Shown here one piece after another: positions 9,019 to 48,188 of a stretch of 64,000 nt of DNA. Position numbers and translations under genes: made by a program. The stretch lies in IMG/VR virus record IMGVR_UViG_3300045988_157791. One strand, 5' to 3'. The first letter of the stretch is position 1; the number at the start of each line of letters is the position of its first letter. Source of the DNA: a virus. Its lineage: Duplodnaviria > Heunggongvirae > Uroviricota > Caudoviricetes. Below the pieces are notes generated by a model, which searched no databases, was not told the origin of the DNA, and saw nothing but the letters and a program-made list of their open reading frames with translations.

Positions 9019-9378
9019 TTAACCTTTCTTCATCAACTCTCGTTTGATTTCATCGGTACGCATCGTGACATCGGCAGCGGTGATCGCCTCATTCAATTTC
9101 ACGATGTCCTCGATTTCCTGCGGTGACTTCTCTGCCAGATGGAAAATGGCTGCTCGAATCACGTCAGAACGAGTGAACTTCTCGAAGCGAGGGATGAACT
9201 TCATCATCTCCAGCAGTTCGAAGTATTCGTCCTCCAGTGACATTGTGCGGCTTTTAATTTTCTCTTTGCCACGAGTCGGGCGTCCCTGTGGTCTGACTGG
9301 TTGGCGCAAAGGAGTTGTGTTCTTAGCCGGTGCATCAGGCTCTTTGCGCTTTGCTAGGTCACCCATTTTCATGGACAT
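9019..9378 (-). CDS. ParG-like partition/centromere-binding protein (ribbon-helix-helix C-terminus)
   Basis: Directly downstream of the ParA-like gene (start/stop abut at 9378); basic disordered N-terminus plus RHH-like C-terminal segment. Confidence 0.5.
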   Translation of the reverse strand: MSMKMGDLAKRKEPDAPAKNTTPLRQPVRPQGRPTRGKEKIKSRTMSLEDEYFELLEMMKFIPRFEKFTRSDVIRAAIFHLAEKSPQEIEDIVKLNEAITAADVTMRTDEIKRELMKKG

Positions 9379-10046
9379 TATTCTTCTTCCTCCAGACTCA
9401 ACAGATAATCTACAAATTCTTCAAACTCGGCTTCCGCCTTTTTGTCGCGCTCGCTACCGGTCATTTCAAAGATAGAACGACCAGACTCTTCCGCATCATC
9501 ATAGACGTTGCGGTTATATAGATTGACTGGCGCAGACTCGATTCCAAACGTCTCAACAATCTCTTTAGCCGCCAGAATGCGAGACACTTGTGATGGCAAA
9601 GCCGGGCACTGGTTCATGACCGCGCGGACCTTCACTTTATCGTTTACATTGCGAACATTGTCGATAATAGGATCGATGTCACGTAAAGATTTCAAATCAC
9701 GACGCTTAGGACGCAGCGGGATAATGATAACGTCAGCCATCAGCATCGCTTGTCGCTGAATTTCGGAGTCGAAGCCACCAGCATCTACCACTACAAACTC
9801 AGCTCTACCCTGAAGCGATTTTAGGTGCTTAATGATGTCATCCTGAACGTATGCAAAAGGAATCAGCTCAAGGTCTTCGTTCTGTCGACGGTCTTCACAC
9901 CAGCTCGTTGTCGTGCGCTGAATATCTATATCGGTAATATAAACCTTCTTCTTCTTTTTGACTTTCAGGCAAACGGCAATTTGCTGGGCAACGGTGGATT
10001 TGCCAGGCCCGCCCTTTGTGCCGCCAACCACAAAGATCTTGGTCAT
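9378..10046 (-). CDS. ParA-family partition ATPase (small type Ib-like)
   Basis: Deviant Walker A GGTKGGPGKST near the N-terminus and VVVDAGG motif; 222 aa. Confidence 0.7.
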   Translation of the reverse strand: MTKIFVVGGTKGGPGKSTVAQQIAVCLKVKKKKKVYITDIDIQRTTTSWCEDRRQNEDLELIPFAYVQDDIIKHLKSLQGRAEFVVVDAGGFDSEIQRQAMLMADVIIIPLRPKRRDLKSLRDIDPIIDNVRNVNDKVKVRAVMNQCPALPSQVSRILAAKEIVETFGIESAPVNLYNRNVYDDAEESGRSIFEMTGSERDKKAEAEFEEFVDYLLSLEEEE

Positions 10047-10112: not shown

Positions 10113-10364
10113 CTAAATGCCTACGGCTACGGTGTAAAGGTTAAATGGTAGGTTGTGGTTAACAATTGGCAATCATAGCTTGTATTTGTCTGTTGAAAAA
10201 AGTAACAATGACCTCTATATTACAAGTACGGTGATATGCCGTACACAATTTGATAATGCACACGTAATGGGCTATAGCCTTTTAAAGTAATTTTTGAGTC
10301 GAAAACTCAGTTTGAACAGAGGAGATTGATGGCCTTCCTACATCACGGCCATCAGGAGGAATAC

Positions 10365-10634
10365 ATGTCAGCACTAAAAAAGCAGCGCATCGATTTGAGA
10401 TTAACCGATGACGATAAAAGCATCATCGAGGAAGCTGCCGCAATGTCTAACCAGAGCATTACTCAGTTTATGGTTAGCAGTGCATCTGAACGTGCCGTGA
10501 AAGTTATAGAGCAACACCGTAGACTAGTTCTGAATGAAGAATCCTGGAATCTGGTTATGGACGCTATAAGCAATCCTCCGGCACCGAACGACAAGCTGAA
10601 ACGAGCTGCTGATCGTCTGAAAAGCATGGAGTAG
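10365..10634 (+). CDS. DUF1778-type antitoxin (TacA/AtaR-like)
   Basis: MSALKKQRIDLRLTDDDKSIIEEAA... with AGGAGG ribosome-binding site before the ATG at 10365; 8 bp before the GNAT toxin gene. Confidence 0.75.
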   Translation: MSALKKQRIDLRLTDDDKSIIEEAAAMSNQSITQFMVSSASERAVKVIEQHRRLVLNEESWNLVMDAISNPPAPNDKLKRAADRLKSME

Positions 10635-10641
10635 TTTACTC

Positions 10642-11163
10642 GTGAGCAATACAACGATAGAGATTTTCTCTGGAGAGAAAGATTATGATCTAAACGGTTT
10701 TGATTGCGGCGAAGAGTCACTAAACGCCTTTTTAGCCAACCACTTAAAAAGGCAGCATGAGGGAAAAATTCTTCGTGCTTATGTGCTTTGCACTCAAGAA
10801 GAAAGGCCAAAAGTGTTAGGATATTACACTTTGTCAGGTAGTTGTTTTGAAAAGGAGTCCTTACCTTCAAGAAGCAAACAAAAGAAGGTTCCTTATCGGA
10901 ATGTTCCAAGTGTTACTTTGGGTAGGCTGGCTTTGGACAAGTCCCTTCAAGGTCAAGGATTTGGCTCAATGCTTGTAACACATGCAATGCGCGTTGTGTA
11001 CAATGCATCTCTTGCTGTAGGCATTCATGGACTTTTCGTTGAGGCGTTAAATGACAAAGCCAAGGCGTTTTATAAAAGTTTAGGCTTTATCCAGCTGGTT
11101 GGTAACAACGAGCGTTCTTTGTTCTATCCTACAAAATCTATCGAAAAATTGTTCGAAGAATAA
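10642..11163 (+). CDS. GNAT-family acetyltransferase toxin (TacT/AtaT-like)
   Basis: GNAT motif GQGFGSMLVTHAMR; classical DUF1778 plus GNAT toxin-antitoxin arrangement. Start codon is GTG. Confidence 0.75.
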   Translation: MSNTTIEIFSGEKDYDLNGFDCGEESLNAFLANHLKRQHEGKILRAYVLCTQEERPKVLGYYTLSGSCFEKESLPSRSKQKKVPYRNVPSVTLGRLALDKSLQGQGFGSMLVTHAMRVVYNASLAVGIHGLFVEALNDKAKAFYKSLGFIQLVGNNERSLFYPTKSIEKLFEE

Positions 11164-11331
11164 TGTGTTCCCCTCATTTGAGGGGAACTTCGACATCACC
11201 AACCACAAACCCTCTCTCCCATCGTATTGTGAAAAAGGATTTGGCGTTCGGTTTCTTCAGTCATTACATCATTATTGCTGATATAGATAGGCTCAGCCCC
11301 ATCGCAGAACAACACGCTGGCTGTTTGTGGT

Positions 11332-11583
11332 TTAATGACGCACCCACTTATCATACAACTCACGATGAACGGCAGAAGCATCTTTCTGACGTATTTTACT
11401 GCTCGTCTCATTCACCACTTTCACTGTGTTTTGAAGTCGTTTTCTGTCTTCCTGTTTTGCCTTCTCTTCCATTGCTCGTCGCGCCGCATTCCCGCCCATC
11501 GTGTAAGCGCCGACAAGAACGAAAAGAACGGCAGCCAGCGTAATCAAAGCAACTTTTAGCTTTGTCATCAGGCTGCCTAGCAT
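11332..11583 (-). CDS. small N-terminally anchored protein, possible i-spanin
   Basis: N-terminal helix LKVALITLAAVLFVLVGAY followed by a charged helical region; follows the endolysin candidate. Confidence 0.35.
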   Translation of the reverse strand: MLGSLMTKLKVALITLAAVLFVLVGAYTMGGNAARRAMEEKAKQEDRKRLQNTVKVVNETSSKIRQKDASAVHRELYDKWVRH

Positions 11584-11584
11584 A

Positions 11585-12304
11585 TTAGACCATCCCTTTC
11601 TGGTGTTTTCTTACCTGCGACCAGGCAATGAATCCTGCCACAACAATAGTGGCAATACCGAAGATGATGCGTACTGTATCCCCGCTAGAGATATGACCTT
11701 GTGCTTTATCCATAGCAGCGGAAACCTGCGGCATAACATCGGCCAGCTGCGCCAGACCAATACCTGCTGTAACAGTTGCGCCTGCAGTTTCTTTAGTTAC
11801 AGGAACAGCCTTCACGGTTTTCACCGGCTTAACAACGCCAGCTCGACGCAGACCTTCCTCAATAACTTCTGCCGCATACCAGGTGTTCAGCGTTTTTAGC
11901 GGGCCTCGGCCATTCTCGTGGCGAATGATTGCCTCAACCAAAGGTCGAAGGATGTCGTAATCATGCAGATCGATGATCATGTCTGCGGTTACACCAACGG
12001 CTTTAGACACCTCATTAATGTAGGCGTCAGTATTGTTTTCATTCGGCGGTGCCCAGCGTTCAATAACTTCACGAATGGTATCGATACTTGTGCCGTCTTT
12101 TGCGCGACGTTTATCGTGGTAGGTAATTAGAGTCACCGCCAGCGCACGAATCCCCCAAACAGGGTCTTTAAACGTGCAAAAGCGCGGTTCGTCTGGATTC
12201 GCAACCAGACCTTGCCACGGTGATCCTTTATCAAGATTACCGGGGTTATTATTACGAATGCCTCTCGGAGTCTTCATCCTTGATCTCCTGTTATTGCAGT
12301 CCAC
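11585..12304 (-). CDS. candidate endolysin / cell-wall-active protein with C-terminal membrane anchor
   Basis: RNNNPGNL motif and a C-terminal hydrophobic helix (IIFGIATIVVAGFIAWSQV); placement between two small membrane proteins. Function inferred from context only. Confidence 0.35.
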   Translation of the reverse strand: MDCNNRRSRMKTPRGIRNNNPGNLDKGSPWQGLVANPDEPRFCTFKDPVWGIRALAVTLITYHDKRRAKDGTSIDTIREVIERWAPPNENNTDAYINEVSKAVGVTADMIIDLHDYDILRPLVEAIIRHENGRGPLKTLNTWYAAEVIEEGLRRAGVVKPVKTVKAVPVTKETAGATVTAGIGLAQLADVMPQVSAAMDKAQGHISSGDTVRIIFGIATIVVAGFIAWSQVRKHQKGMV

Positions 12305-12626
12305 TTTTTACGCCATACGCGGCTAACCCCAAAAGCAGTGCGGTAATAATGAACGACGTTATTTTAGAAACAATGCCGCCAAAGAACCCACTTGAGATGG
12401 AATCTAACCGGTTAAGGAGTTTGTCCAGATTGGAGTGTTGAATACTATGTTGCGCCGGGGTCATATCACCAAAGTAGGTTTTCAGCTGATCATTGACCTC
12501 CTGGCCAATTTCTTCACGTAGCTCTTTACCTAATTTGCCAACAACCTCCCGAGCAACGATCGCGGCAATACGCTCAACTTGCTCTGTTGTAACGCCCGCC
12601 ATCTCGTTCGACATGTTTTCCTCCAT
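12291..12626 (-). CDS. small membrane protein, possible holin
   Basis: 111 aa with one C-terminal hydrophobic helix; first gene after the tail fibre; recurrent intergenic motif upstream. Confidence 0.35.
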   Translation of the reverse strand: MEENMSNEMAGVTTEQVERIAAIVAREVVGKLGKELREEIGQEVNDQLKTYFGDMTPAQHSIQHSNLDKLLNRLDSISSGFFGGIVSKITSFIITALLLGLAAYGVKSGLQ

Positions 12627-12816
12627 GAAAAGTCAAATCGGGATGGCGGATTTATATCACACTTCCCCTTTCAATTATAGGTATATACTTACCTATCTAT
12701 GCATATACCGTTTAACGGCTGTTCAAATTCGTATCTAGTAACTCACTAATATATCCCTATGATTGCGGCTGTGAGATCGCATTTTAAACCTCACAGCCAT
12801 ATAAATAATGTCTAAA

Positions 12817-15800
12817 TCAGTTACTTGTTGCCCCAACAGTACCTGCAAATTTCAGCCATTGACCTGACGGACTTCTATTACTACGGTAGTGATAAACGAG
12901 GATTGCGTTTGTAATCCCACCATAGTCAGCTTTGTGTGACGTCGTTAAACGAATTGTATAATCACCGTTAGGTAGATTAAAAACTTCGATTATAGATTCT
13001 GCTAATTCTACAGCACCAAATCCCGTTATATTGTTGATACTGCCAGCATTGAATCCCATAGCATCGCCAAAGCCAATCCAATAACTTTTGCTAAACGCCC
13101 CATTTGATTTTAGGTGGCTAATGAATGCGGACAAGCTCATGCCCATATCCCCACCTGAAACAGAGGAAGTTCGCACAGTCATACTTGGAAGAGCACTGCT
13201 CTTCACATAGGAACTTAGAAGGTTTGTTACCTCTGTTTTCGTGTAAGCATTAAGGTTAGCCGCAGTCAAAGTTATATCGGCAGAGCCATCAAACGCCACA
13301 CCAGCAATTTTCCTTGCTGTCTGCAATTTTGTGGCGGTTGCGGCATTACCAGTAGTGTTCTGATTACCAGTTGTATTCACACCAGGGATTGAATCCTTAG
13401 CGGTATATACCTGCGCCCACGCTGACCATGCCGCATCAGTGGTATCTCTTCGGGAGCGAATGAAAACCGGCGCATGTGCACCGCTCGTACCACTCCAGCC
13501 AATAAGCAACTCGCCCTCACCAGCAGCACTCGCACCTTTCATGTGCAATACGTTGCCATACGTGGTCGGGTAGCTATTGTTGTACGCCTCATACATTTGA
13601 ATGCCAGCAGTGCCTTGAGTAGAGCCGCTTAACGCCGTAACTCGGCCACGAGATACCAATGTATTAATATTGATATCGCCTGAACCATCAAACTTAACAC
13701 CATTGATGTTTCTCGCTGTTTGCAACTTCGTAGCTGTTGAAGCATTACCGTTCAAACTACCATTTACGCCACCAGTCACATTTAGTCCATTACCAATTGA
13801 TACAGCACCGCTGGTATTATTAATTGTAATAGGTCGCAAACCGTTCCATGAACCTAATGTGTCTCCTGATGCTGTTAGCATGAAATATGTGTTCGATCCA
13901 TCATTACGGATAAAGAACCCAAAGCTACCGTAAGCAATGCGGAAACCATTTGCATATTTTGAAATGATCTCGCCAGAAGATGTCAAACCTCCAGATAATG
14001 TACCACCGGTAAGAGGTAATGCACCGACATCAGAGGCTGTTGGTTTGTTTTTCGTGTTATATACTCTTCGCCATCCTGGAGAATAATCTGTGCCATTAAA
14101 TACATAGATAAACTCCGCATTAGTGAGAGCACCGGAAACACTTGTCGTTGTGGCCGTTGTTATGCGGATCGTATAATTATTTGAACTACTACCGTTATTA
14201 AATACTTCTATAACAGCTCCTGCCAATGGAATAACGCCACAACCAGTTTCACTATTTGGTATGGTTGCGCTATTGGCATAGGCCCACGCACATCGAGCAA
14301 TCCATGCCTTTGTGTTAAAGGCTCCATTATTTTGCAATAACGTCACTAACTGGGCTGTTGTTATTGCTCCGCCATTACTTCCTGTAGTTAACCAACCAGT
14401 AGGAGATGCTGGGCAACCTATATTTGCTGGTGACAAGGAAATATTTGCCGAACCGTCAAACGACACCCCATTAATAGTACGCGCAGTCTGCAACTTCGTA
14501 GCAGTAGCCGCATTACCTGTTGTATTCTGATTACCAGTCGTATTAACACCTGGCAAATTAATATTTGCAGTACCATCAAAGCTCACGCCGCCGATAGTTC
14601 TTGCCGTCTGTAGTTTTGTAGCAGTTGCGGCATTACCAGTGGTGTTCTGATTACCCGTAGTGTTTACACCTGGAAGATTAATATTGGCAGAACCGTCGAA
14701 ACCAACTCCACCGATAGTTCTTGCCGTCTGTAATTTCGTTGCTGTAGCAGCATTTCCTGAAAGACTTGAAATAAATGGATGTGAACAGTAATAACCTCGT
14801 CCATTTTTAAAGTCCAAAATTATCTGTGCATTCGTACTTTCTGATAAAGGATCAGTTGCCCCCCACTTATAAGTGGTTTGACCAACTGCATAATCAGCCG
14901 TTGGAACAATCACATTTAATCCTTCCTCAGCAAAAATCTGGATAGGGAATGCTCTTGTCTCAACGTAAAATACACTACACAAATCATCATCTTTTACGCT
15001 TGCGATAATCGAGTGTATAGATCGTTCAACGGTTGAATATATTGAGAAAAAACCAACAGCATATGAACCGCGATCAGACCAACCGCCCGGCATAACAAAA
15101 CCATTAAACTCACAATTATTCATAGCGTATCCGCCAGCTGAGGAATAAGTGGTGATAACCACTCGTGAGGCTAATTCATCTGTGCCACCACCAGTTCGGC
15201 GAAAGACTACAGGATACCACTTACCGCTTACTGCATTTGCAGGAGCAGAGAAAGTGTATTTTCGCATCCCCTTTTTCTTATCCACTTCACCTTTGCTGTA
15301 AACATTAATGTTATTCAGGAAGCGGCCCTTGTCGGGGATATCAGCACCATTCTGATCCTTCTGTAGTCGTTTTTCAGCATTATCATATGCGGTCTTAACT
15401 GCTTTTGGTGTCGCGGCTAAAGATTCACTGGTGCTGTCGACAGCACTGCTAAGTTTCACAACACCTTTGGTGGTAAGGCTTGCGTCTTCCATCGCAACTG
15501 CACCGGCAATCTCTTCAGCACGATCAGCGGCAGCTTCCGCACGGGTCGCAGCGGATTCAGCAGCAGTTTTGCTCTGAGATGCAGCTGTCGCACTGCCTGC
15601 CGCCTCTGTTGCCTTCGTGGATGCCGTTGAAGCACTGCTCTTCGCTGCTGATGCCTGCTTGGTCGCCTCATCTTTTGAAGCGGATGCTGAGGTGGCTGAT
15701 GCAGACGCAGAACTTGCAGATTCAGCAGCTGCCGCCTTAGAGGAAGCAGCATTGTCTTCTGAGGTCTTTGCATTTGTTTCAGAGGTTTTTGCTGCCGATG

Positions 15801-16854
15801 CTGAATTTTTAGCAGCTGTAGCCTGACTCGTCGCCTCTGTCGCTTTTGTGGTAGCTGTTGTCGCGGATGACAATGCGCTATCCGCAGATTTTCCTGCCGC
15901 TGTTGCACTTGATGAAGCACTATCCGCACTTGCTGAGGCTGCACTTGCTGACGCTTCTGCCGCAGATTTCGAACTGTTTGCAGACGATGCACTCTGTTCG
16001 GCTGCCGTTTCAGATGCTTTTGCGTTTGCCTCTGACGTTTTTGCTGCCTTAGAGGAATTTGCAGCTTCTGTTGCCGATGATGCAGCCGCGTTTGCACTCG
16101 ATGAAGCGTTAGTCTCTGATGCTTTGGCTGCATCCTTAGATGCAGAGGCACTGGACGCAGATATTGCAGCCTCCGTTGCTTTGGTCGATGCTACAGACGC
16201 TGATTCTGCTGCCGCTTCTTTGGCGGCCTCTGCGTTCGTTTCAGATCTTTTCGCAGCAGTTGCACTCGCACTTGCAGCACTTTGTGAGGATGCCGCAGCG
16301 GATGCACTTTGAGACGCTTGAGATGCTTTTTCTCCAGCGGTATTGGCGCTTTCTGCCGCTGCGGCAGCACTGGCCGCCGCCTCACGAGCTTTGTCGCCAG
16401 CAGCATCAATCGCGTCAGTGTTATTTTTATACCACTCAACGTTTTCGTTGTGCTCGTTGACGATCTGCATTAGCGGCTTAACGGTCACTTCTGTACCGTC
16501 TTCACGCTCGATTGTCACCTCATCAAGAGCAGTCAACCAACTGCGCATAGACTTGGAATCAGCCGACATACGCGACATTAGTGCAGTAAAGCGCGCGCTA
16601 AACTGCGTTAAGTCACCTTCATAGGTCGTAATGATTCGGCACGGAACTTCAGACTGAGTTTCGCCGGTATAAGGTTCTGAGAGAACAATGTTTGTATCAC
16701 TGGTTACGCGCTTGATCTCATACAGCTTATTGTCGGGGCCAATGACGATCATGCCCGGCAACACACCATTAGCTGTTACGTTCCAGGCTGTTCCAACACC
16801 AACGAGAGTATTGCTACCCTGTGTAAATGTGATAGTACCTTCCCTGTACCACAT
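12817..16854 (-). CDS. tail fibre protein (1345 aa)
   Basis: About 270-aa Ala/Ser/Thr-rich low-complexity segment, then repeated blocks GNQNTTGNAATATKLQTARTIGGVxFDGSANI (at least 5 copies); last gene of the tail operon. Confidence 0.8.
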   Translation of the reverse strand: MWYREGTITFTQGSNTLVGVGTAWNVTANGVLPGMIVIGPDNKLYEIKRVTSDTNIVLSEPYTGETQSEVPCRIITTYEGDLTQFSARFTALMSRMSADSKSMRSWLTALDEVTIEREDGTEVTVKPLMQIVNEHNENVEWYKNNTDAIDAAGDKAREAAASAAAAAESANTAGEKASQASQSASAAASSQSAASASATAAKRSETNAEAAKEAAAESASVASTKATEAAISASSASASKDAAKASETNASSSANAAASSATEAANSSKAAKTSEANAKASETAAEQSASSANSSKSAAEASASAASASADSASSSATAAGKSADSALSSATTATTKATEATSQATAAKNSASAAKTSETNAKTSEDNAASSKAAAAESASSASASATSASASKDEATKQASAAKSSASTASTKATEAAGSATAASQSKTAAESAATRAEAAADRAEEIAGAVAMEDASLTTKGVVKLSSAVDSTSESLAATPKAVKTAYDNAEKRLQKDQNGADIPDKGRFLNNINVYSKGEVDKKKGMRKYTFSAPANAVSGKWYPVVFRRTGGGTDELASRVVITTYSSAGGYAMNNCEFNGFVMPGGWSDRGSYAVGFFSIYSTVERSIHSIIASVKDDDLCSVFYVETRAFPIQIFAEEGLNVIVPTADYAVGQTTYKWGATDPLSESTNAQIILDFKNGRGYYCSHPFISSLSGNAATATKLQTARTIGGVGFDGSANINLPGVNTTGNQNTTGNAATATKLQTARTIGGVSFDGTANINLPGVNTTGNQNTTGNAATATKLQTARTINGVSFDGSANISLSPANIGCPASPTGWLTTGSNGGAITTAQLVTLLQNNGAFNTKAWIARCAWAYANSATIPNSETGCGVIPLAGAVIEVFNNGSSSNNYTIRITTATTTSVSGALTNAEFIYVFNGTDYSPGWRRVYNTKNKPTASDVGALPLTGGTLSGGLTSSGEIISKYANGFRIAYGSFGFFIRNDGSNTYFMLTASGDTLGSWNGLRPITINNTSGAVSIGNGLNVTGGVNGSLNGNASTATKLQTARNINGVKFDGSGDININTLVSRGRVTALSGSTQGTAGIQMYEAYNNSYPTTYGNVLHMKGASAAGEGELLIGWSGTSGAHAPVFIRSRRDTTDAAWSAWAQVYTAKDSIPGVNTTGNQNTTGNAATATKLQTARKIAGVAFDGSADITLTAANLNAYTKTEVTNLLSSYVKSSALPSMTVRTSSVSGGDMGMSLSAFISHLKSNGAFSKSYWIGFGDAMGFNAGSINNITGFGAVELAESIIEVFNLPNGDYTIRLTTSHKADYGGITNAILVYHYRSNRSPSGQWLKFAGTVGATSN
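14440..14790. repeat. about 105-bp tandem DNA repeats inside the tail fibre gene
   Basis: Three near-identical units each encoding TTGNAATATKLQTARTIGGV-FDG-ANINLPGVN. Confidence 0.7.
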
Positions 16855-42681: not shown

Positions 42682-44241
42682 ATGACTGTTCGGATTGTAT
42701 CTAACGCAGTAAATGCGCTTATTTCTGGCGCAGATGACAAGGTAAAGCAACTGGTGCAGCAAATGTTGAGCTACGAAGTCGAGACTGGCGACTGGAAGGG
42801 CACAAGCACGATGTTCAACTGGAGTAAAAACTCGTTCCCTGCTGGCTTTGCCAAGCCTGTAGCGGCGAACTTGAACAAGGCGGGCATCAAATGTGTTCAT
42901 ATCCGCAAAGACAAAGCCCCGGCGCTTGGAAAGCCAAATCCGGCGGTTAACCCATTCCCATACAATCCTGATTATGCGTATCAGGATCAGACTGTGGAAA
43001 CACTAGTTCGCGAGGGAATGATGATTGCGCAGATCGCTACTGGTGGCGGGAAATCTAATGTTGCCTGCAAAGCAGCTGCACGTATCGGTCGAATGACATT
43101 ATTTTTAACAACCCGCTCTGTTCTGATGTTTCAAATGGCCGAAAACTTCCAGAGATCCATCGACTACCGCGCCAAAAATGGCGAACCGTGGTTAAAAGAC
43201 CAAAAGGTTGGAGTCATTGGCTCGGGTGAGTTCCAGGTATCACGACATATCAACGTCGCTACAGTTCAAACTCTGGCAAGTTTCCTTGAAGAACCACCAC
43301 GCGATGCAACACCAGATAAGAAGAGCTACCACCTCAAACGTCGGGACTTGGTGAAACGCTTCCTTTCAAGTGTGTCTCTGCTTATTCTGGAAGAGGCGCA
43401 TGAGTCTTCAGGCTCTAATTTCTATGACATCGCCAGATTATGTGTGAACGCAGACTATCGTCTGGCGCTTACAGCCACGCCGTTCATGAAGGATTCTACA
43501 GAAGCCAACATGCGTCTGATGGCTGTGGCCGGGCGAATTGAAATTAAAGTCACAGAAAAGTACCTGATTGATCGAGGCATTCTGGCAAAACCGTACTTCC
43601 TTTATCATAAAGTTGCTTACAAGCCAGACGAGGTCAGAATCAAGGCGGAACTTGCCAACAAACACCTTAATTTTAGAGTAGGTATGAGCACTGCCTACCA
43701 AAAGGCTTATCAGTTGGGGATCGTGTATAATTTGGGACGTAACGAGGCCATTGTGCGCGAAGCATTGCTCTATAAGCAACATTCTCTCAATTGTATGACT
43801 CTGGTTCGTCTTAAACGCCACGGGCAAATCCTGATGGAGATGATGAAGGAGTCCGGCCTTAGAGTTGACTTCATTTATGGGGAATCGAACCAGGCGACAA
43901 GGCAAGCAAAGCTGAACAGTTTAGCGTCTGGCGAAATAGATGTTTTAATAGGCTCGACTATTCTGGATGTCGGTGTTGATGTGCCAAGCGTGGGCGCGGT
44001 CATTCTTGCTGGTGGTGGGAAAGCAGAAGTTGAAATGAGACAGCGTGTCGGTCGTGGCTTACGAGCAAAAAAAAATCAGGCAAACGTGTGTTTTATCACT
44101 GATTTCATTGACATTAGCAACAAATACCTGTTGTCTCACTCTTATGAGCGAAAACACATCATCGACACCACACCTGGCTTTGCAGAAGGTGTATTGCCTA
44201 TTGATGGCGCATTCGATTTTGGAGTTCTGAAACGAGATTAG
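42682..44241 (+). CDS. superfamily 2 DEAD/DEAH-box-type helicase
   Basis: Motif I ATGGGKS, motif II LEEAHE, motif III TATP, motif VI QRVGRGLR. Confidence 0.75.
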   Translation: MTVRIVSNAVNALISGADDKVKQLVQQMLSYEVETGDWKGTSTMFNWSKNSFPAGFAKPVAANLNKAGIKCVHIRKDKAPALGKPNPAVNPFPYNPDYAYQDQTVETLVREGMMIAQIATGGGKSNVACKAAARIGRMTLFLTTRSVLMFQMAENFQRSIDYRAKNGEPWLKDQKVGVIGSGEFQVSRHINVATVQTLASFLEEPPRDATPDKKSYHLKRRDLVKRFLSSVSLLILEEAHESSGSNFYDIARLCVNADYRLALTATPFMKDSTEANMRLMAVAGRIEIKVTEKYLIDRGILAKPYFLYHKVAYKPDEVRIKAELANKHLNFRVGMSTAYQKAYQLGIVYNLGRNEAIVREALLYKQHSLNCMTLVRLKRHGQILMEMMKESGLRVDFIYGESNQATRQAKLNSLASGEIDVLIGSTILDVGVDVPSVGAVILAGGGKAEVEMRQRVGRGLRAKKNQANVCFITDFIDISNKYLLSHSYERKHIIDTTPGFAEGVLPIDGAFDFGVLKRD

Positions 44242-44243
44242 TT

Positions 44244-44522
44244 ATGAGCGAAAAGAAAACAACTTATTGCCAAGTGGCATTGTCTGATAAGGCCAATGAA
44301 AAACTTGGAAAATTTCAAATAAAACTCAAAGAGAAAAAAATCAAGATGTCTAAGGCTGAAGTTATCAATGCCATTCTGGAGACGATGACTATGGCTGAAT
44401 TTGACAAAGTCACATCTGCCGTTGGGGTTTCCGCTAAGACGCGTGAGAAAATCATGCGCATCTATGAGAACTCCAATATGACAAAAAAAGATCTAGAGGA
44501 AATACTGAGCAGGTTGCCGTAA
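44244..44522 (+). CDS. small ribbon-helix-helix-like protein (92 aa)
   Basis: Starts 2 nt after the helicase stop; KMSKAEVINAILE resembles an RHH strand-helix. Confidence 0.4.
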   Translation: MSEKKTTYCQVALSDKANEKLGKFQIKLKEKKIKMSKAEVINAILETMTMAEFDKVTSAVGVSAKTREKIMRIYENSNMTKKDLEEILSRLP

Positions 44523-44554
44523 CATTTCATATTTACCCCCTATCTACTAATTCT

Positions 44555-45154
44555 ATGATGTGCTCACTTGTTAGAAAGGAGCACATCATGAGTTGGTTAA
44601 AAGAATTATCATTTGTTGACACCACTGGCGCTAAGAAAAATCATTCTTTCTGGAAAGTCAGCGATCCTTCCGATTTTCTTGTTGGTGCTAATGCTGCTTT
44701 TGAATTGCTTAACTTTTATCAACGTTATCCTGAAATGAAACACAGTCCACTCCTGTACAGAATAACAAACGATATGAATAGGTCTGGTTTATTATCAAGT
44801 GAGTCAGCGAAAGGCTTTTTTAGCAAAATTACGCCACACATATCATTCGATTCAGCAAACGAAATTGATTATCTACCCACGAAACCTCAAGAACAATTAT
44901 CTGTACCACCTGAGAAAAAAGAAAGACGAATTGCCAGCATTGAAAATATATCGAAAGAGCTTCGCACAACAACGTTGAGGCTGCTGAACTTTCTTACGCT
45001 ACTTAATTGGATAGATGATCAAACATTGATTCCATCAACCGATGCGTTGGATAACAGAGTCCTTAGGCTGAACAAAAAATCGCAATTTGGTTTTGTGTTC
45101 ACCAAAAAAGGTGAAGATTTAATCAAAAGAAAATATAGATTATTGAATGATTAA
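44555..45154 (+). CDS. hypothetical protein (likely 188 aa from ATG at 44588)
   Basis: AAAGGAG ribosome-binding site and ATG at 44588 lie inside an 11-bp inverted repeat (ATGATGTGCTC ... GAGCACATCAT) that could sequester the site. Confidence 0.5.
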   Translation: MMCSLVRKEHIMSWLKELSFVDTTGAKKNHSFWKVSDPSDFLVGANAAFELLNFYQRYPEMKHSPLLYRITNDMNRSGLLSSESAKGFFSKITPHISFDSANEIDYLPTKPQEQLSVPPEKKERRIASIENISKELRTTTLRLLNFLTLLNWIDDQTLIPSTDALDNRVLRLNKKSQFGFVFTKKGEDLIKRKYRLLND

Positions 45155-45539
45155 TAGTCTACATGCAGGTGTATGAGAGCACCTGCATGTGACACTCATC
45201 ACATTTTTGAATGTATATACCTTCGGCTGAAAAAAGATCTTGATAGGCTGAATGATATTTGTAGGCTTCGCCTCCGAAGAAATTCGGAGGATATATGCGA
45301 CAATTTATAAAAACGTGTGACCTAAGAAATATAGTAGATGATATTGCATGTGATGAAATTAGCAAAAAAGAGAAGAACAAAAACGCCAATTAACGCTATC
45401 TACCTATAAATCTGAAGAGTTCAATAGGATGCATATCTGAAACACGCCCTCGACGATACCAAAAAGATTTGTCGAGGGCGTCGGGCTTTCCCTATGTCTG
45501 AACGATTAAATTTTACAGCAATTAAATATTTTGTATATG

Positions 45540-46340
45540 TTATTCTTCTGGTGGTACGACAAAATCGTCGAGTTTATTCTTTTCGTCTCGAAGCAACCTG
45601 ATTTCTTCTTCTGTTATGCATTTGTCATAATCTGTTTGTTCAGAATGGCACAGCGCAACTGCGAATGGATAGCCGGTGTAAGACAGCCCTCTAACAGGTT
45701 CTAATTCACCGTTGTCTTTTTTCCTAAATTTGTAAAAGTCAGGAGTGTCATAATTGGTGACGCTAACAAGAGCATATTTATCATTTTCTCTTGCATACAC
45801 TTCACTAACACCTCTCGATTCGCCCAACTCTCTACTCACATATGTCGAATCACTTGCAGCATCAAACACAGCCTGACCTAATGGAGTTTTTTTTAAATCA
45901 TCTATTTTCTCTTTTTCCTTCCTGATTTTAGATTCGTTTTCCAGATAAAGTTTCACACCATTTTCTTTACATGCTAGATTTTGGCGTTCAAAACGTAATC
46001 GTTCTCTTGCCGAGTTGGTACTTTTATCCATTGTAACGAATACAATCGGGTTACGTTCACGAACATCAAAGATGTGTGCATTGAATGCGGTCGCACCTGT
46101 ATAGGCGTTCAAGACGTTTTTGCCATTCACCTCTCCACATACCATATATGAATAGCTATTTTCACCTAACTGAATAGCTCGCATATTCGTGAACCGACCA
46201 GCATCAGGATCTAGCAGTGTAGAGCGAATATCCTTTTCAACTAGATTTATGGCTCGCTCTTCATCAGAATCACAACCTGTTAATAGTAAAGCCGCTATTA
46301 ACAATGCTAATGAGTATTTTTTATTCACCCCATTCTTCAT
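45540..46340 (-). CDS. lipoprotein (266 aa)
   Basis: Signal peptide with lipobox LLTGC; hairpin terminator CGCCCTCGAC...GTCGAGGGCG downstream. Confidence 0.55.
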   Translation of the reverse strand: MKNGVNKKYSLALLIAALLLTGCDSDEERAINLVEKDIRSTLLDPDAGRFTNMRAIQLGENSYSYMVCGEVNGKNVLNAYTGATAFNAHIFDVRERNPIVFVTMDKSTNSARERLRFERQNLACKENGVKLYLENESKIRKEKEKIDDLKKTPLGQAVFDAASDSTYVSRELGESRGVSEVYARENDKYALVSVTNYDTPDFYKFRKKDNGELEPVRGLSYTGYPFAVALCHSEQTDYDKCITEEEIRLLRDEKNKLDDFVVPPEE

Positions 46341-46442
46341 GAAACTTATTCCATAATCAATTTTTGGTGGAATGTACGGTTAGTCTGTCTACGCATCATA
46401 GAGATGTATATAATGACCAAAAAAGACTTAAAAAGGTAGACT

Positions 46443-46964
46443 ATGGTTAAAGACATCACCTACGGCATACCGGCTGAAGTCTGGCCGCGAGACTACGAAC
46501 ATGCTGAAAACATACTTATGTTCTGGCGGAAGAACAACATTCCTGTAAGAGTCACGCTTGAAGACGGTCAGGTGTTTTGCATGTACGTTCAGGGGACAAT
46601 GCCTTCCCGCAATAAGCTAGATTTATGCCCGCTTCCATATGATAAAGAAAATCGTATAAGACTCCCACTTGAGCGCATTAGCACAATTGAATCAGGTGTA
46701 ATCGATGGCATTGCTCGCGAGTTCAAAGGTAGGCTAACAATACATCCAGACTATGTTGACAATCAGCCATCACGCCGTGACTTTTTTGCGATATGTCGCA
46801 AGGCTTATCAAAACGACCAATCTATAAGGGTCTACATGGCAGACGGTCGTGAAATAGAAGGGGTGTCAAGAGGCGTTGATGCTTGTCAGGTCACTCTTAA
46901 GTTAGAAGACGGCAGAAAAATACTTGTTTTCTTCGATTGGGTTGAACGAATCCTTCCATTTTAA
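46443..46964 (+). CDS. hypothetical protein (173 aa)
   Basis: ORF followed by a clear intrinsic terminator. Confidence 0.5.
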   Translation: MVKDITYGIPAEVWPRDYEHAENILMFWRKNNIPVRVTLEDGQVFCMYVQGTMPSRNKLDLCPLPYDKENRIRLPLERISTIESGVIDGIAREFKGRLTIHPDYVDNQPSRRDFFAICRKAYQNDQSIRVYMADGREIEGVSRGVDACQVTLKLEDGRKILVFFDWVERILPF

Positions 46965-46976
46965 ATCTATAAGGGT

Positions 46977-47006
46977 AATAACCGGCTAAGTCCGGTTATT
47001 ATTTTA
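46977..47006 (+). terminator. intrinsic terminator
   Basis: AATAACCGG-CTAAGT-CCGGTTATT hairpin followed by ATTTTA. Confidence 0.65.
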
Positions 47007-47155
47007 CATGCCATTCATTTAAAACTCTTTCAATGCCACTCTGTATAAATATATAAGGTTAAAAGCCTGAATTGATTATTTATTTAGGGAACACCTTCGA
47101 CGATCTTGCTTTTATTTCTAGGACTTTCATCCCTGCAAAAATTTAAAAAAAACAC

Positions 47156-47183
47156 TTGCAATCTTTTTTCACGTATCGATAAT
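47156..47183 (+). promoter_or_regulatory. sigma70-like promoter
   Basis: TTGCAA, 16-nt spacer, GATAAT, about 70 bp upstream of the 47250 ORF. Confidence 0.45.
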
Positions 47184-47249
47184 TGAACTCGTCGAAAGCG
47201 AGCTGGCTAACGACAGCAAAAAATAAATTCATTTTAATTTTTCGTAAGG

Positions 47250-47909
47250 ATGTCCATCATGGCTAACATTATCATTTCTAAAAAATCCATCGTTGAAGCT
47301 GCTTCCATTGTATCCGATGAACTGCGCGAAAAAGCAGATCTGGCAACTCAAACATATAACGAACATTATAAAAATGGTACGCACACTAAAGCAGACAAAG
47401 CAAATATGCAAGCTGCGACCACTAAACTTGCTTACTTCATCAACAACGTTGTAAACGCTGTAGAAGAAGAAAAATTATGCTCTGTTTTCTACTATGCGAT
47501 CAAAGCAAGTAAACAAGCGCCAGAAGCATTTTTCCGTGATGCAATGGCTAACAGTTATTCTCTGGAAAAACTGGTTTATCTGGTCAAATCAATTAAATCT
47601 GGTAAATGCGTTTATTCCGTCGCTGATATGTCAGGATCTCGTGTATTCGCTTTAATCGATATGATTAACGACGAGATCGACACGTTCACCAATGGCGCTG
47701 TTTTCGATTTAATGAATGAAGCAAAAAAAGCGTGCGAAATTAAATTGGACGCTGGCTATACTCAAGCCAACCAGTTGATCAATCTTTGCGAACGTCTCGG
47801 ACTTGTTGAAAAAGTCAAAGGAGCTGGGAGCGCGAAAGCTGGTACTCAGCAATATCGCTTCATTAAAAATGATTTCTATAACTATCTGGCTGATGCTTTT
47901 AAAGCGTAA
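47250..47909 (+). CDS. hypothetical protein (219 aa)
   Basis: ORF with upstream promoter-like elements and downstream terminator. Confidence 0.5.
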   Translation: MSIMANIIISKKSIVEAASIVSDELREKADLATQTYNEHYKNGTHTKADKANMQAATTKLAYFINNVVNAVEEEKLCSVFYYAIKASKQAPEAFFRDAMANSYSLEKLVYLVKSIKSGKCVYSVADMSGSRVFALIDMINDEIDTFTNGAVFDLMNEAKKACEIKLDAGYTQANQLINLCERLGLVEKVKGAGSAKAGTQQYRFIKNDFYNYLADAFKA

Positions 47910-47918
47910 TTAATGGAA

Positions 47919-47945
47919 TCTGGCGCCCACTATGGGCGCTTTTAA
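47919..47945 (+). terminator. intrinsic terminator (GCGCCCACTATGGGCGC hairpin plus T-run)
   Basis: Perfect stem-loop followed by TTTT; identical hairpin repeated at 48194-48220. Confidence 0.7.
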
Positions 47946-47957
47946 GGAGTTTTAATC

Positions 47958-48188
47958 ATGTATGTTCTTATCGCTGGCGTTAACGTGCGCAATGAATATT
48001 TTGTTAATCGCATCGCTGGGATCGCTGGCTACGCTGGGCGCTCAGTCGAGTTTATCGATGAAACAACGCGTAAAATTGACTTATTGAACGACCAGGAGCG
48101 AAAAAAAGCTGAGGTGAACGACGCTGATATATTTTTAATGTTAAAAGCGTTTGTAGAAATGGGATTTGAAATCAGTTTACATAAATAA
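47958..48188 (+). CDS. hypothetical small protein (76 aa)
   Basis: AAGGAG ribosome-binding site upstream; flanked by two identical terminator hairpins. Confidence 0.5.
   Translation: MYVLIAGVNVRNEYFVNRIAGIAGYAGRSVEFIDETTRKIDLLNDQERKKAEVNDADIFLMLKAFVEMGFEISLHK

Follow-up and report, generated by a model that had tools for sequence, protein, structure and literature searches.

A predicted host-lysis cassette with a membrane-anchored Enc34/M4Lys-type endolysin and a phrog_5093 small membrane protein in an SSU5-like phage-plasmid

Introduction

The endolysin architecture in which a catalytic domain is followed by a C-terminal transmembrane domain (TMD) has been published since 2019-2022. M4Lys from Salmonella phage BSPM4 is an N-acetylglucosaminidase that lyses E. 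coli alone, in a holin-independent manner upon over-expression, provided that its TMD is present, with the last 13 or more TMD residues being needed (PMC7143992). For the endolysin of Hafnia phage Enc34, the catalytic domain was found to be muralytic and the full-length protein toxic (PMC8943055). In LysAP from Acidovorax phage AP1, described together with HolAP as a ‘C-terminal SAR endolysin’ system, the C-terminal TM helix was needed for both localisation and lysis (PMC8879335). Export of LysAP was reported to be Sec-dependent, whereas azide did not prevent lysis by M4Lys (PMC7143992). The topologies predicted for the relatives also disagree, being N-out/C-in for M4Lys and N-in/C-in with two helices for the endolysin of phage Siskin (PMC6498227).

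Phage-plasmids are common in Enterobacteriaceae, clinical isolates included. The DNA analysed here is a 64,000-nt stretch of viral DNA (IMG/VR record IMGVR_UViG_3300045988_157791), referred to as the window, which shares 98.9% identity with Escherichia phage Cyrano, itself an SSU5-like phage-plasmid, and 82% with Salmonella phage SSU5. A first-pass annotation had proposed that three consecutive genes located after the tail fibre gene formed an atypical lysis cassette with membrane-anchored components. We report here how these genes compare with the described systems.

Results and discussion

Organisation of the cassette

The three genes were indeed found on the minus strand immediately after the gene for a 1345-aa tail fibre, where the ORF list gives 12291..12626 (111 aa), 11585..12304 (239 aa, the longest ORF, starting with GTG at 12304) and 11332..11583 (83 aa). 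The first two lengths had to be revised. Strong Shine-Dalgarno sequences, GGAGGA and AGGAG, precede the internal ATG codons at 12614 and 12277 respectively, and the true products are therefore taken to be 107 aa and 230 aa long, in agreement with the annotations of Cyrano and SSU5 and with the 107-aa and 230-aa homologues. In the first gene, the GGAGGA sequence lies 7 nt upstream of the ATG. A dual-start holin/antiholin motif involving the in-frame upstream ATG at 12626 was considered and rejected, since no ribosome-binding site precedes this codon and homologues do not conserve the second Met (M5). The count of three genes also proved incomplete: a fourth gene, coding for a 71-aa lipoprotein, overlaps the third and had been overlooked. 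The coordinates of all features are collected in Table 1.

The first three genes are spaced by gaps of 13 nt and 1 nt, and the third and fourth overlap. Searches of Pfam and NCBIfam with the four proteins gave no match above threshold, and weak Pfam matches (DUF6187, TraQ and others) were disregarded as they fell far under the gathering scores. Based on the PHROG E-values (Table 1) and on the endolysin homologues, which number in the thousands, the four predicted ORFs are regarded as genuine genes and not as chance ORFs.

Table 1 Features of the predicted lysis cassette and its surroundings (window coordinates)
Feature	Coordinates	Strand	Basis
1345-aa tail fibre gene	12817..16854		
Weak sigma-70-like promoter match	12748..12775	-	9/12 positions, not above chance
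107-aa small membrane protein, annotated ‘holin’ in Cyrano and SSU5	12291..12614	-	phrog_5093 (1.9e-68); hydropathy
230-aa predicted Enc34/M4Lys-type endolysin	11585..12277	-	7q47 match; phrog_873 endolysin (6.5e-89); TM helix; catalytic residues
Endolysin, codon of catalytic Glu121	11915..11917	-	
Endolysin, amphipathic helix	11702..11755	-	
Endolysin, TM helix	11600..11683	-	
83-aa predicted Rz-like i-spanin	11332..11583	-	phrog_1026 Rz-like spanin (7e-25); hydropathy
71-aa predicted Rz1-like o-spanin lipoprotein	11196..11411	-	phrog_1275 Rz-like spanin (1.3e-24); lipobox
Terminator-like GC-rich hairpin	11167..11188	-	Consensus scan; 8 nt past the Rz1 stop codon

Transcription signals were sought with a consensus scan, in which the count of promoter and terminator sites in the region was no higher than in shuffled sequence. 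The only site with a plausible position was the hairpin past the Rz1 gene, which separates the cassette from a convergent KacT-like toxin gene; it is probably the 3' end of the lysis transcript, although the evidence for this is weak. The promoter match falls inside the 202-nt gap between the stop codon of the tail fibre gene and the first lysis gene.

The same four genes are present in the same order and position in SSU5 (SSU5_026-030) and in Cyrano (CYRAN_22-25), where they are annotated as holin, endolysin, Rz and Rz1, and the cassettes of these phages show essentially no difference from that of the window. The endolysin is 100% identical to that of Cyrano and the 107-aa protein is 99.1% identical to its Cyrano counterpart. 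The label ‘atypical’ therefore holds only against the lambda paradigm: the cassette is an already known SSU5-type system, ordinary but for its 107-aa small protein. The first-pass annotation had recognised no canonical lysozyme or holin elsewhere, which is consistent with the annotation of Cyrano, where no second cassette and no other lysis genes are annotated in positions 1-100,000 of 108,379. Overall, we consider it very likely that these four tightly packed minus-strand genes are the sole host-lysis cassette of an SSU5-like phage-plasmid.

Many elements of the SSU5 type have been seen only as plasmids in genome assemblies, and conceivably the cassette has lost its lytic function and is decaying in a plasmid-like element. 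This is very improbable, as the four ORFs are all intact, the catalytic residues of the endolysin are in place, and the near-identical Cyrano proteins belong to an element deposited as a phage genome.

The 230-aa endolysin

The first-pass annotation had suggested a domain search and a structure prediction for the second protein, and both identify it as an Enc34-type endolysin. A phmmer search matched the 230-aa protein to the crystal structure of Enc34 ORF39 (PDB 7q47; PHA02564) with an E-value of 3.9e-54 and 59% identity over the catalytic domain, and Foldseek matched its AF2 model to the same entry (E=3.6e-15, target TM-score 0.79, 59% identity). Residues W75, Y86 and E121 (230-aa numbering) align to Trp79, Tyr95 and Glu131 of Enc34, so that the Trp/Tyr/Glu signature is common to both proteins, and none of the three varies in 36 homologues sharing 56-89% identity with the window protein. 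Homologues from Chi-like phages share about 55% identity over 99% of the length.

At its N-terminus the protein has the PHA02564 catalytic domain, which spans about residues 1-150. A linker connects this to two helices, an amphipathic one at 175-192 and a hydrophobic TM helix at 199-226, the latter being followed by a basic tail, RKHQK. Both the RNNNPGNL motif and the C-terminal anchor reported by the first-pass annotation were thus borne out, its length of 239 aa being the part that did not stand. Hydropathy analysis places the hydrophobic helix at about 205-232 in 239-aa numbering, or 196-223 in 230-aa numbering, with a maximal 19-residue Kyte-Doolittle (KD) mean of 2.07. The weaker amphipathic helix that precedes it coincides with the maximum of the hydrophobic moment at about 175-195. 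Both helices, 175-192 and 199-226, appear in the AF2 model, where the confidence for the linker and the amphipathic helix is low (pLDDT 36-57). Several positions in the linker and in the TMD are invariant among homologues.

Based on these matches, the 230-aa protein is predicted to be an Enc34/M4Lys-type peptidoglycan glycosidase, with a PHA02564 domain of GH73/GH23-like alpha-lobe type. Muralytic activity and TMD-dependent lysis would be expected by extension from its tested relatives. PHA02564 carries the name ‘virion protein’, and the domain is also found within tape-measure/internal virion and tail proteins, but these exceed 600 aa. A role as a virion-associated hydrolase was rejected because the protein is small, has a TMD, is encoded within the cassette and is homologous over its full length to endolysins that have been tested.

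The spanin pair

The i-spanin gene starts 1 nt past the endolysin stop codon. Hydropathy analysis confirmed the N-terminal anchor that had been noted for the 83-aa protein, giving a TM helix at about residues 1-34 (KD up to 2.38), followed by a charged helical periplasmic part, short for an i-spanin at about 55 aa, that ends in WVRH; its PHROG assignment is that of an Rz-like i-spanin. Homologues adjoin an endolysin gene in Pasteurella and Providencia elements.

The o-spanin gene begins at 11411 inside Rz, in the +1 frame, and extends beyond the Rz stop (11332), which is the overlapped architecture. Its product has a signal peptide and a lipobox, MISG-C24, with a mature part of 48 aa. The signal sequence, MRRAVKYVRKMLLPFIVSCMISG-C24-V, has Val and no Asp at +2. 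An overlapping ORF with a lipobox and the motif FCD..EPI.IS...T.ET.R.IL.HN is kept in SSU5 and in loci L005 and L007 (four lineages). In the Cyrano record the start of Rz1 is placed after the lipobox, giving a 39-aa product, which looks like an annotation error. The spanins of SSU5 are included in the spanin database, where its o-spanin is placed in the ‘Chi’ family (PMC6139136). Taken as a whole, the 83-aa and 71-aa proteins are a predicted overlapped two-component i-spanin/o-spanin pair.

The first-pass annotation had also envisaged that the genes might serve superinfection exclusion or be associated with the tail fibre, that is, be membrane-protein morons with no part in lysis. The setting lends itself to such a reading, as SSU5 encodes Cor and further membrane or outer-membrane proteins between the tail fibre and the lysis cassette, and the virion connection of the PHA02564 domain points in the same direction. 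We nevertheless found no support for it and judge its probability to be minimal. The homology to endolysins with demonstrated lytic function extends over the full length, TMD included (PMC7143992; PMC8943055), the product is a TM-anchored protein much smaller than the virion proteins with the same domain, and the spanins are recognised by their PHROG matches and by a conserved lipobox. Furthermore, a viable phage needs lysis genes, and none are annotated elsewhere in the portion of Cyrano considered above. The proposal of a lysis cassette with membrane-anchored components was thus upheld, with the first gene alone being no more than a candidate ‘holin’.

The 107-aa phrog_5093 protein

The single C-terminal TM helix described for the first protein was recovered by hydropathy analysis, at about residues 80-103 of the 107-aa product (about residues 80-107 in the 111-aa ORF; KD up to 2.0), whereas the length of 111 aa was not retained. 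Only 4-7 residues lie beyond this helix (GVKSGLQ, with one Lys), and the highly charged hydrophilic C-terminal tail expected of a holin was not found, the charged domain being N-terminal instead. The soluble part contains the conserved motif YFGDMTPxQHxxQH, in which G49, H56 and H60 are invariant (HxxxH motif). The AF2 model consists of two long helices, 10-48 and 53-103, with a pTM of 0.29 and without fold information, and a search of BFVD with this model returned no match. No described holin family in Pfam or NCBIfam was matched, and in PHROGs all 33 family members match only phrog_5093, which is listed as of ‘unknown function’.

A profile search assembled 54 cluster representatives of the phrog_5093 family. 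Among 50,697 phage records the family was found in only 12, all of them SSU5-like, and a tblastn search of deposited phages with distant members recovered no records beyond these 12 and no characterised homologue from a cultured phage. A search for related loci with a narrow phrog_5093 alignment gave 2 loci only.

The gene neighbourhood was surveyed at 14 loci, using crude ORF calling and Kyte-Doolittle thresholds on a small set of loci that are not fully independent; in 12 of them the phrog_5093 gene is directly upstream of, or overlaps, either an endolysin gene or a small multi-TM holin-like gene. Three unrelated kinds of endolysin are found beside it (Enc34-type, Peptidase_M15_3 and transglycosylase). 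All eight sufficiently complete loci with a non-Enc34 endolysin have a separate holin-like gene with 2-3 TM helices in the cassette, one of which matches the PHROG holin family phrog_8226 at 4e-10. At the 3 loci whose endolysin is Enc34-type, the 107-aa-type protein is the sole hole-forming candidate, which does not hold for the 8 others; where the endolysin is without its own TMD, a cassette with phrog_5093 also has a classical multi-TM holin candidate. At loci L043 and L049, the C-terminally anchored proteins encoded upstream of TMD-endolysins were examined as remote members of the family, but with a best E-value of 0.15 against the profile they are treated as analogous and not homologous to phrog_5093.

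Role of the 107-aa protein and proposed lysis mechanism

A single TM helix suffices for a holin, as in T4 holin T. The 107-aa protein could thus be a true holin, as annotated, of a pinholin-like or class-III-like single-TM kind, which would depolarise the membrane and in this way release or activate the tethered endolysin, as proposed for ‘C-terminal SAR’ endolysins. Its gene opens the cassette directly upstream of the endolysin, as is canonical for a holin, in 12 of the 14 loci surveyed, and SSU5-like cassettes offer no second small membrane protein. In the AP1 system, lysis was accelerated when a single-TM holin was paired with a GH24 endolysin that has a C-terminal TMD (PMC8879335). These arguments are countered by the multi-TM holin-like genes of the eight non-Enc34 loci, by a pattern of conservation that is strongest in the soluble domain and is unusual among holins, and by the near absence of charge past the TM helix. 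M4Lys, moreover, lyses cells without its upstream partner, and co-expression of the two slightly delays lysis (PMC7143992). We regard a holin proper as a real but minority possibility.

The separate multi-TM holin-like gene in the non-Enc34 loci and the invariant HxxxH motif suggest that the 107-aa protein could be a timing regulator and not a hole-former. We slightly favour a regulator of a hole-forming TM element over a single-TM holin, and put the chance that the protein is a regulator or co-factor at a little below even; that it is something else is unlikely.

The following sequence of events can be envisaged. Upon late expression, the C-terminal helix would keep the endolysin at the inner membrane, with its basic tail on the cytoplasmic side. 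The tail-anchored 107-aa protein would time permeabilisation or depolarisation of the membrane. It could do so as a single-TM holin itself, or by regulating the TM element that forms the hole, which would then be the endolysin's own TMD. The catalytic domain would then gain access to the murein and cleave its glycan strands, and a complex of Rz in the inner membrane and the lipoprotein Rz1 in the outer membrane would fuse or disrupt the outer membrane, leading to virion release.

A broader proposal, which we put forward tentatively and with some doubt, is that phrog_5093 may represent an undescribed, widespread family of tail-anchored lysis-timing regulators, with a cytoplasmic coiled coil and the HxxxH motif, that partner whatever hole-former is present, this being the endolysin TMD in SSU5-type cassettes. 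If true, the SSU5-type endolysin would be a natural holin-endolysin fusion and these phages would be without a separate holin. The co-occurrence of phrog_5093 with three unrelated endolysin types is a modest new lead and could clarify lysis timing in phage-plasmids.

Comparison with known systems

The cassette is what would be expected as the lysis module of an SSU5-like phage-plasmid, and both a crystal structure and demonstrated activity are available for the family of its endolysin. The Enc34 system shares with it the EAD-linker-TMD layout of the endolysin and a cassette order with overlapped spanins (PMC8943055). The host phage of the Enc34 system is, however, a Chi-like siphovirus, whereas the window is part of an SSU5-like phage-plasmid. 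The upstream partner differs as well: in Enc34 and Chi-like phages this protein is small and has its TM helix at the N-terminus, and the term ‘class IV holin’ was proposed for it in Siskin (PMC6498227), whereas the window has the C-terminally anchored phrog_5093 protein. M4Lys of BSPM4 likewise has the same family and architecture as the window endolysin but a different upstream gene.

The AP1 system resembles the cassette in pairing a TM-tailed endolysin with a single-TM protein of about 111 aa (PMC8879335). The catalytic domain of LysAP, a GH24 lysozyme, is nevertheless unrelated to that of the window endolysin, and HolAP is a member of a named holin family with its TM helix near the N-terminus, unlike the 107-aa protein.

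As for the spanins, an N-terminally anchored protein of the inner membrane and a lipoprotein of the outer membrane, encoded out of frame and overlapping, are likewise found in LysB/LysC of P2 and in the ‘Chi’ o-spanin family (PMC6139136). Cysteines are absent from the i-spanin of the window, which at 83 aa is much shorter than lambda Rz (153 aa); the mature o-spanin contains three of them and is not rich in proline.

Organisation of the lysis cassette

The ORF listing placed three minus-strand ORFs of 111, 239 and 83 aa after the tail fibre gene, as described in the first-pass annotation that had proposed an atypical lysis cassette here, and hydropathy analysis bore out its C-terminal TM helix in the first two and N-terminal helix in the third. 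Its length was right for the 83-aa protein, but the other two had been over-extended. Strong Shine-Dalgarno sequences precede internal start codons (GGAGGA before ATG 12614, AGGAG before ATG 12277) and are absent at the upstream starts, so the real products are of 107 and 230 aa, which are also the annotated lengths in related phages and those of nearly all homologues. An overlapping fourth gene, for a 71-aa lipoprotein, had been overlooked. Intergenic gaps in the cassette measure 13 nt and 1 nt, and one pair of genes overlaps.

Coordinates and gene contexts of the features discussed
Feature	Locus	Position	Strand	Remarks
ParA and 119-aa protein genes	window	9019..10046	-	
Toxin-antitoxin pair	window	10326..11163	+	converges on lysis cassette
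GC-rich hairpin	window	11167..11188	-	3' of last stop codon of cassette; weak evidence
71-aa lipoprotein (Rz1-like) gene	window	11196..11411	-	starts within 83-aa gene, different frame
Region of Cyrano CYRAN_25	window	11196..11315		
83-aa i-spanin gene	window	11332..11583	-	
239-aa ORF of endolysin gene (230 aa from ATG 12277)	window	11585..12304	-	longest ORF has GTG start
111-aa ORF of first gene (107 aa from ATG 12614)	window	12291..12626	-	
Tail fibre gene, 1345 aa	window	12817..16854	-	lysis ORFs directly after
Low-GC region	window	44000..48000		
phrog_5093, then Enc34-type TMD-endolysin	window, L007, L013			
phrog_5093, then soluble Peptidase_M15_3 endolysin	L009/L010, L012, L016/L017, L019, L022			
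phrog_5093, 3-TM protein, transglycosylase endolysin	L014, L021			
phrog_5093, then small 2-3-TM protein	L015, L018			
phrog_5093, uninformative context	L011, L020			
Trio with 2-TM protein	L009	4001-5375		
Trio with 2-TM protein	L016	3001-4685		
Trio with 2-TM protein	L019	3851-4973		
Trio with 2-TM protein	L022	571-2351		
103-aa and 227-aa genes	L007	3731-4725		Providencia phage-plasmid
85-aa phrog_3342 gene	L005	2731-2988		Pasteurella prophage

Nucleotide identity over the region is 98.9% with Escherichia phage Cyrano and 82% with Salmonella phage SSU5, both of the SSU5 group of phage-plasmids, with the endolysin 100% and the 107-aa protein 99.1% identical between window and Cyrano. In both records the genes already carry the labels holin, endolysin, Rz and Rz1; the cassette is hence the already known SSU5/Cyrano lysis module. 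Across positions 1-100,000 of the 108,379 of Cyrano, the annotation has no further lysozyme, amidase, holin or spanin, in agreement with the earlier remark that canonical lysis genes were not recognised elsewhere, and this appears to be the sole lysis cassette of the phage. The proposal of a lysis system was thus supported, by these annotations and by an Enc34/M4Lys-type endolysin (PHA02564 catalytic domain and C-terminal TMD) with overlapped spanins; the alternatives offered, superinfection exclusion or fibre-associated proteins, found no support.

The hairpin separates the lysis transcription unit from the convergent toxin-antitoxin unit, which encodes a 102-aa antitoxin and a 173-aa GNAT acetyltransferase toxin (KacT-type in the Cyrano annotation). 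Next to the gene for the 222-aa partition ATPase ParA comes that for a 119-aa protein, labelled 'RelE/ParE putative toxin' in Cyrano; since it directly follows parA and has a basic N-terminus, this protein may instead be a partition adaptor or bind the centromere. The tail fibre protein, homologous to the phage P1 S fibre according to the Cyrano record, is Ala/Ser-rich and of low complexity over a long stretch (about residues 150-480) and has some five copies of the repeat NTTGNQNTTGNAATATKLQTAR..GV.FDG. Elsewhere in the window, the low-GC region (0.38-0.40 versus about 0.47) looks like a variable accessory region: 96.9% is shared with Cyrano and just 19-76% is covered in other SSU5-like phages, and its annotations are hypothetical proteins, a lipoprotein and a regulator.

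The endolysin

The 230-aa endolysin had looked like an orphan because Pfam and NCBIfam hold no model for it. It matched a PHROGs endolysin family (6.5e-89) and the catalytic-domain structure from the endolysin of Hafnia phage Enc34 (PDB 7q47, E=3.9e-54), and its AlphaFold model, made with 36 homologues (pLDDT ~90 across the catalytic domain), superposed on 7q47 (E=3.6e-15, TM 0.79); domain search and structure prediction both point to the Enc34 endolysin. The PHA02564 domain of the latter is muralytic on permeabilised Gram-negative cells, is all-helical with a fold like the alpha-lobe of lysozyme-fold GH73/GH23 enzymes, and uses Glu131 with Trp79 and Tyr95 (PMC8943055). The equivalent E121, W75 and Y86 are invariant across the 36-sequence alignment. 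The related M4Lys of phage BSPM4 has N-acetylglucosaminidase activity and, expressed alone, lysed E. coli; its C-terminal TMD was required and azide did not block lysis (PMC7143992). Chi-like phage homologues are ~55% identical to the window endolysin across 99% of its length. In all testable features it belongs with the Enc34/M4Lys family, and homology to tested proteins marks it as a putative glycosidase whose C-terminal TMD would be needed for lysis.

The PHA02564 domain is very common: 793 of 50,697 phage records contain it (182 full-length), as do at least 560 stretches in IMG/VR. It also occurs TMD-free, as a 136-170-aa soluble protein, and within internal virion and tail proteins.

The spanins

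Both proteins matched Rz-like PHROG families, the 83-aa protein the i-spanin phrog_1026 (7e-25) and the 71-aa lipoprotein phrog_1275 (1.3e-24). The n-region of the lipoprotein is basic, its core is hydrophobic, and its lipobox is MISG-C24, with Val at +2. An overlapping lipobox ORF with a common mature-region motif is kept in SSU5, a Providencia phage-plasmid and a Pasteurella prophage, each of which has an Enc34-type endolysin. In their census of spanins, Kongari et al. class those of SSU5 as overlapped and two-component, and assign the o-spanin, along with that of Enc34, to the 'Chi' family (PMC6139136); the window spanins agree with this class in its testable features. In Cyrano, Rz1 (CYRAN_25) is given as 39 aa, starting 3' of the signal peptide and lipobox Cys24, which looks like an annotation slip since the 71-aa ORF is conserved in the SSU5, Providencia and Pasteurella elements.

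The 107-aa protein: holin or regulator

The 107-aa 'holin' is the one part of the cassette whose annotated role is supported solely by position. It had no Pfam or NCBIfam match and belongs to phrog_5093, of 'unknown function', which among deposited phages occurs in only 12 records, all SSU5-like. Searching 1.8 billion representatives with a profile recovered 54 relatives of 94-143 aa. Common to these are an N-terminal part that is helical and charged, the motif YFGDMTPxQHxxQHxRxD and a C-terminal TM helix followed by almost nothing. G49, H56 and H60 (nt about 12435..12470) are invariant in the 33 sequences of the broad family alignment A3, which are 20-90% identical to the window protein. These residues lie in the soluble domain ~20-25 residues ahead of the TM helix and could form a metal-binding or sensing site; the AF2 model consists merely of two long helices.

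We surveyed the gene context at 14 loci. The family adjoins three unrelated endolysin types, which is good evidence that it has a part in lysis. In L014 the 3-TM protein matched holin phrog_8226 (4e-10) and the transglycosylase endolysin phrog_669; the L021 endolysin is a sequence homologue of the L014 endolysin. In this small sample of phylogenetically non-independent loci, a separate multi-TM holin-like gene was present in 8/8 loci that lack an Enc34-type endolysin and are reasonably complete, and in 0/3 loci that have one. Crude ORF/TM calling in IMG/VR showed that the gene ahead of a TMD-bearing PHA02564 endolysin generally encodes a single-TM coiled-coil protein, from one or another of several unrelated families, and that soluble forms of the endolysin often adjoin 2-TM proteins.

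Other arrangements were also observed. Uncultivated phage contigs repeatedly carry a trio of phrog_5093 protein, soluble Peptidase_M15_3 endolysin and 72-96-aa 2-TM protein, followed by an i-spanin-like protein where the contig continues (L009, L016, L022); this cassette type is absent among deposited cultured phages. In the Providencia phage-plasmid, 103-aa and 227-aa genes, with no TM helix and no Pfam match recorded, split the Enc34-type endolysin from the spanin genes. In the Pasteurella prophage, an 85-aa phrog_3342 protein of unknown function and with no clear TM helix precedes the Enc34-type endolysin, a third kind of upstream partner.

The 107-aa protein sits where a holin would be expected and is the only hole-forming candidate in the three Enc34-type loci, but not in the eight others. 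It has no homology to a described holin family and no charged C-terminal tail beyond the TM helix, and the upstream partner of M4Lys was dispensable and slightly delayed lysis (PMC7143992). Given the soluble His motif, the tail-less C-terminus and this partner behaviour, a regulator, acting as antiholin or as co-factor on a hole-forming TM element, is no less likely than a holin. The regulator role is a lead so far because of the size and non-independence of the sample, and it is where the remaining value of the cassette lies.

Proposed mechanism and comparison with known systems

Late expression would put the endolysin at the inner membrane, and the 107-aa protein would then time membrane permeabilisation or depolarisation. 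The catalytic domain would next degrade the murein, and Rz-Rz1 would finally disrupt the outer membrane. Published accounts of this endolysin type do not agree on its topology before triggering (PMC8943055, PMC6498227, PMC7143992). The endolysin shares the M4Lys-type C-terminal module of conserved linker, amphipathic helix (175-192) and strongly hydrophobic helix (199-226, then RKHQK). LysAP of phage AP1 has been read as a pinholin-released 'C-terminal SAR' endolysin (PMC8879335); its domain is GH24, unlike the PHA02564 domain of the window endolysin, and it represents a convergent case.
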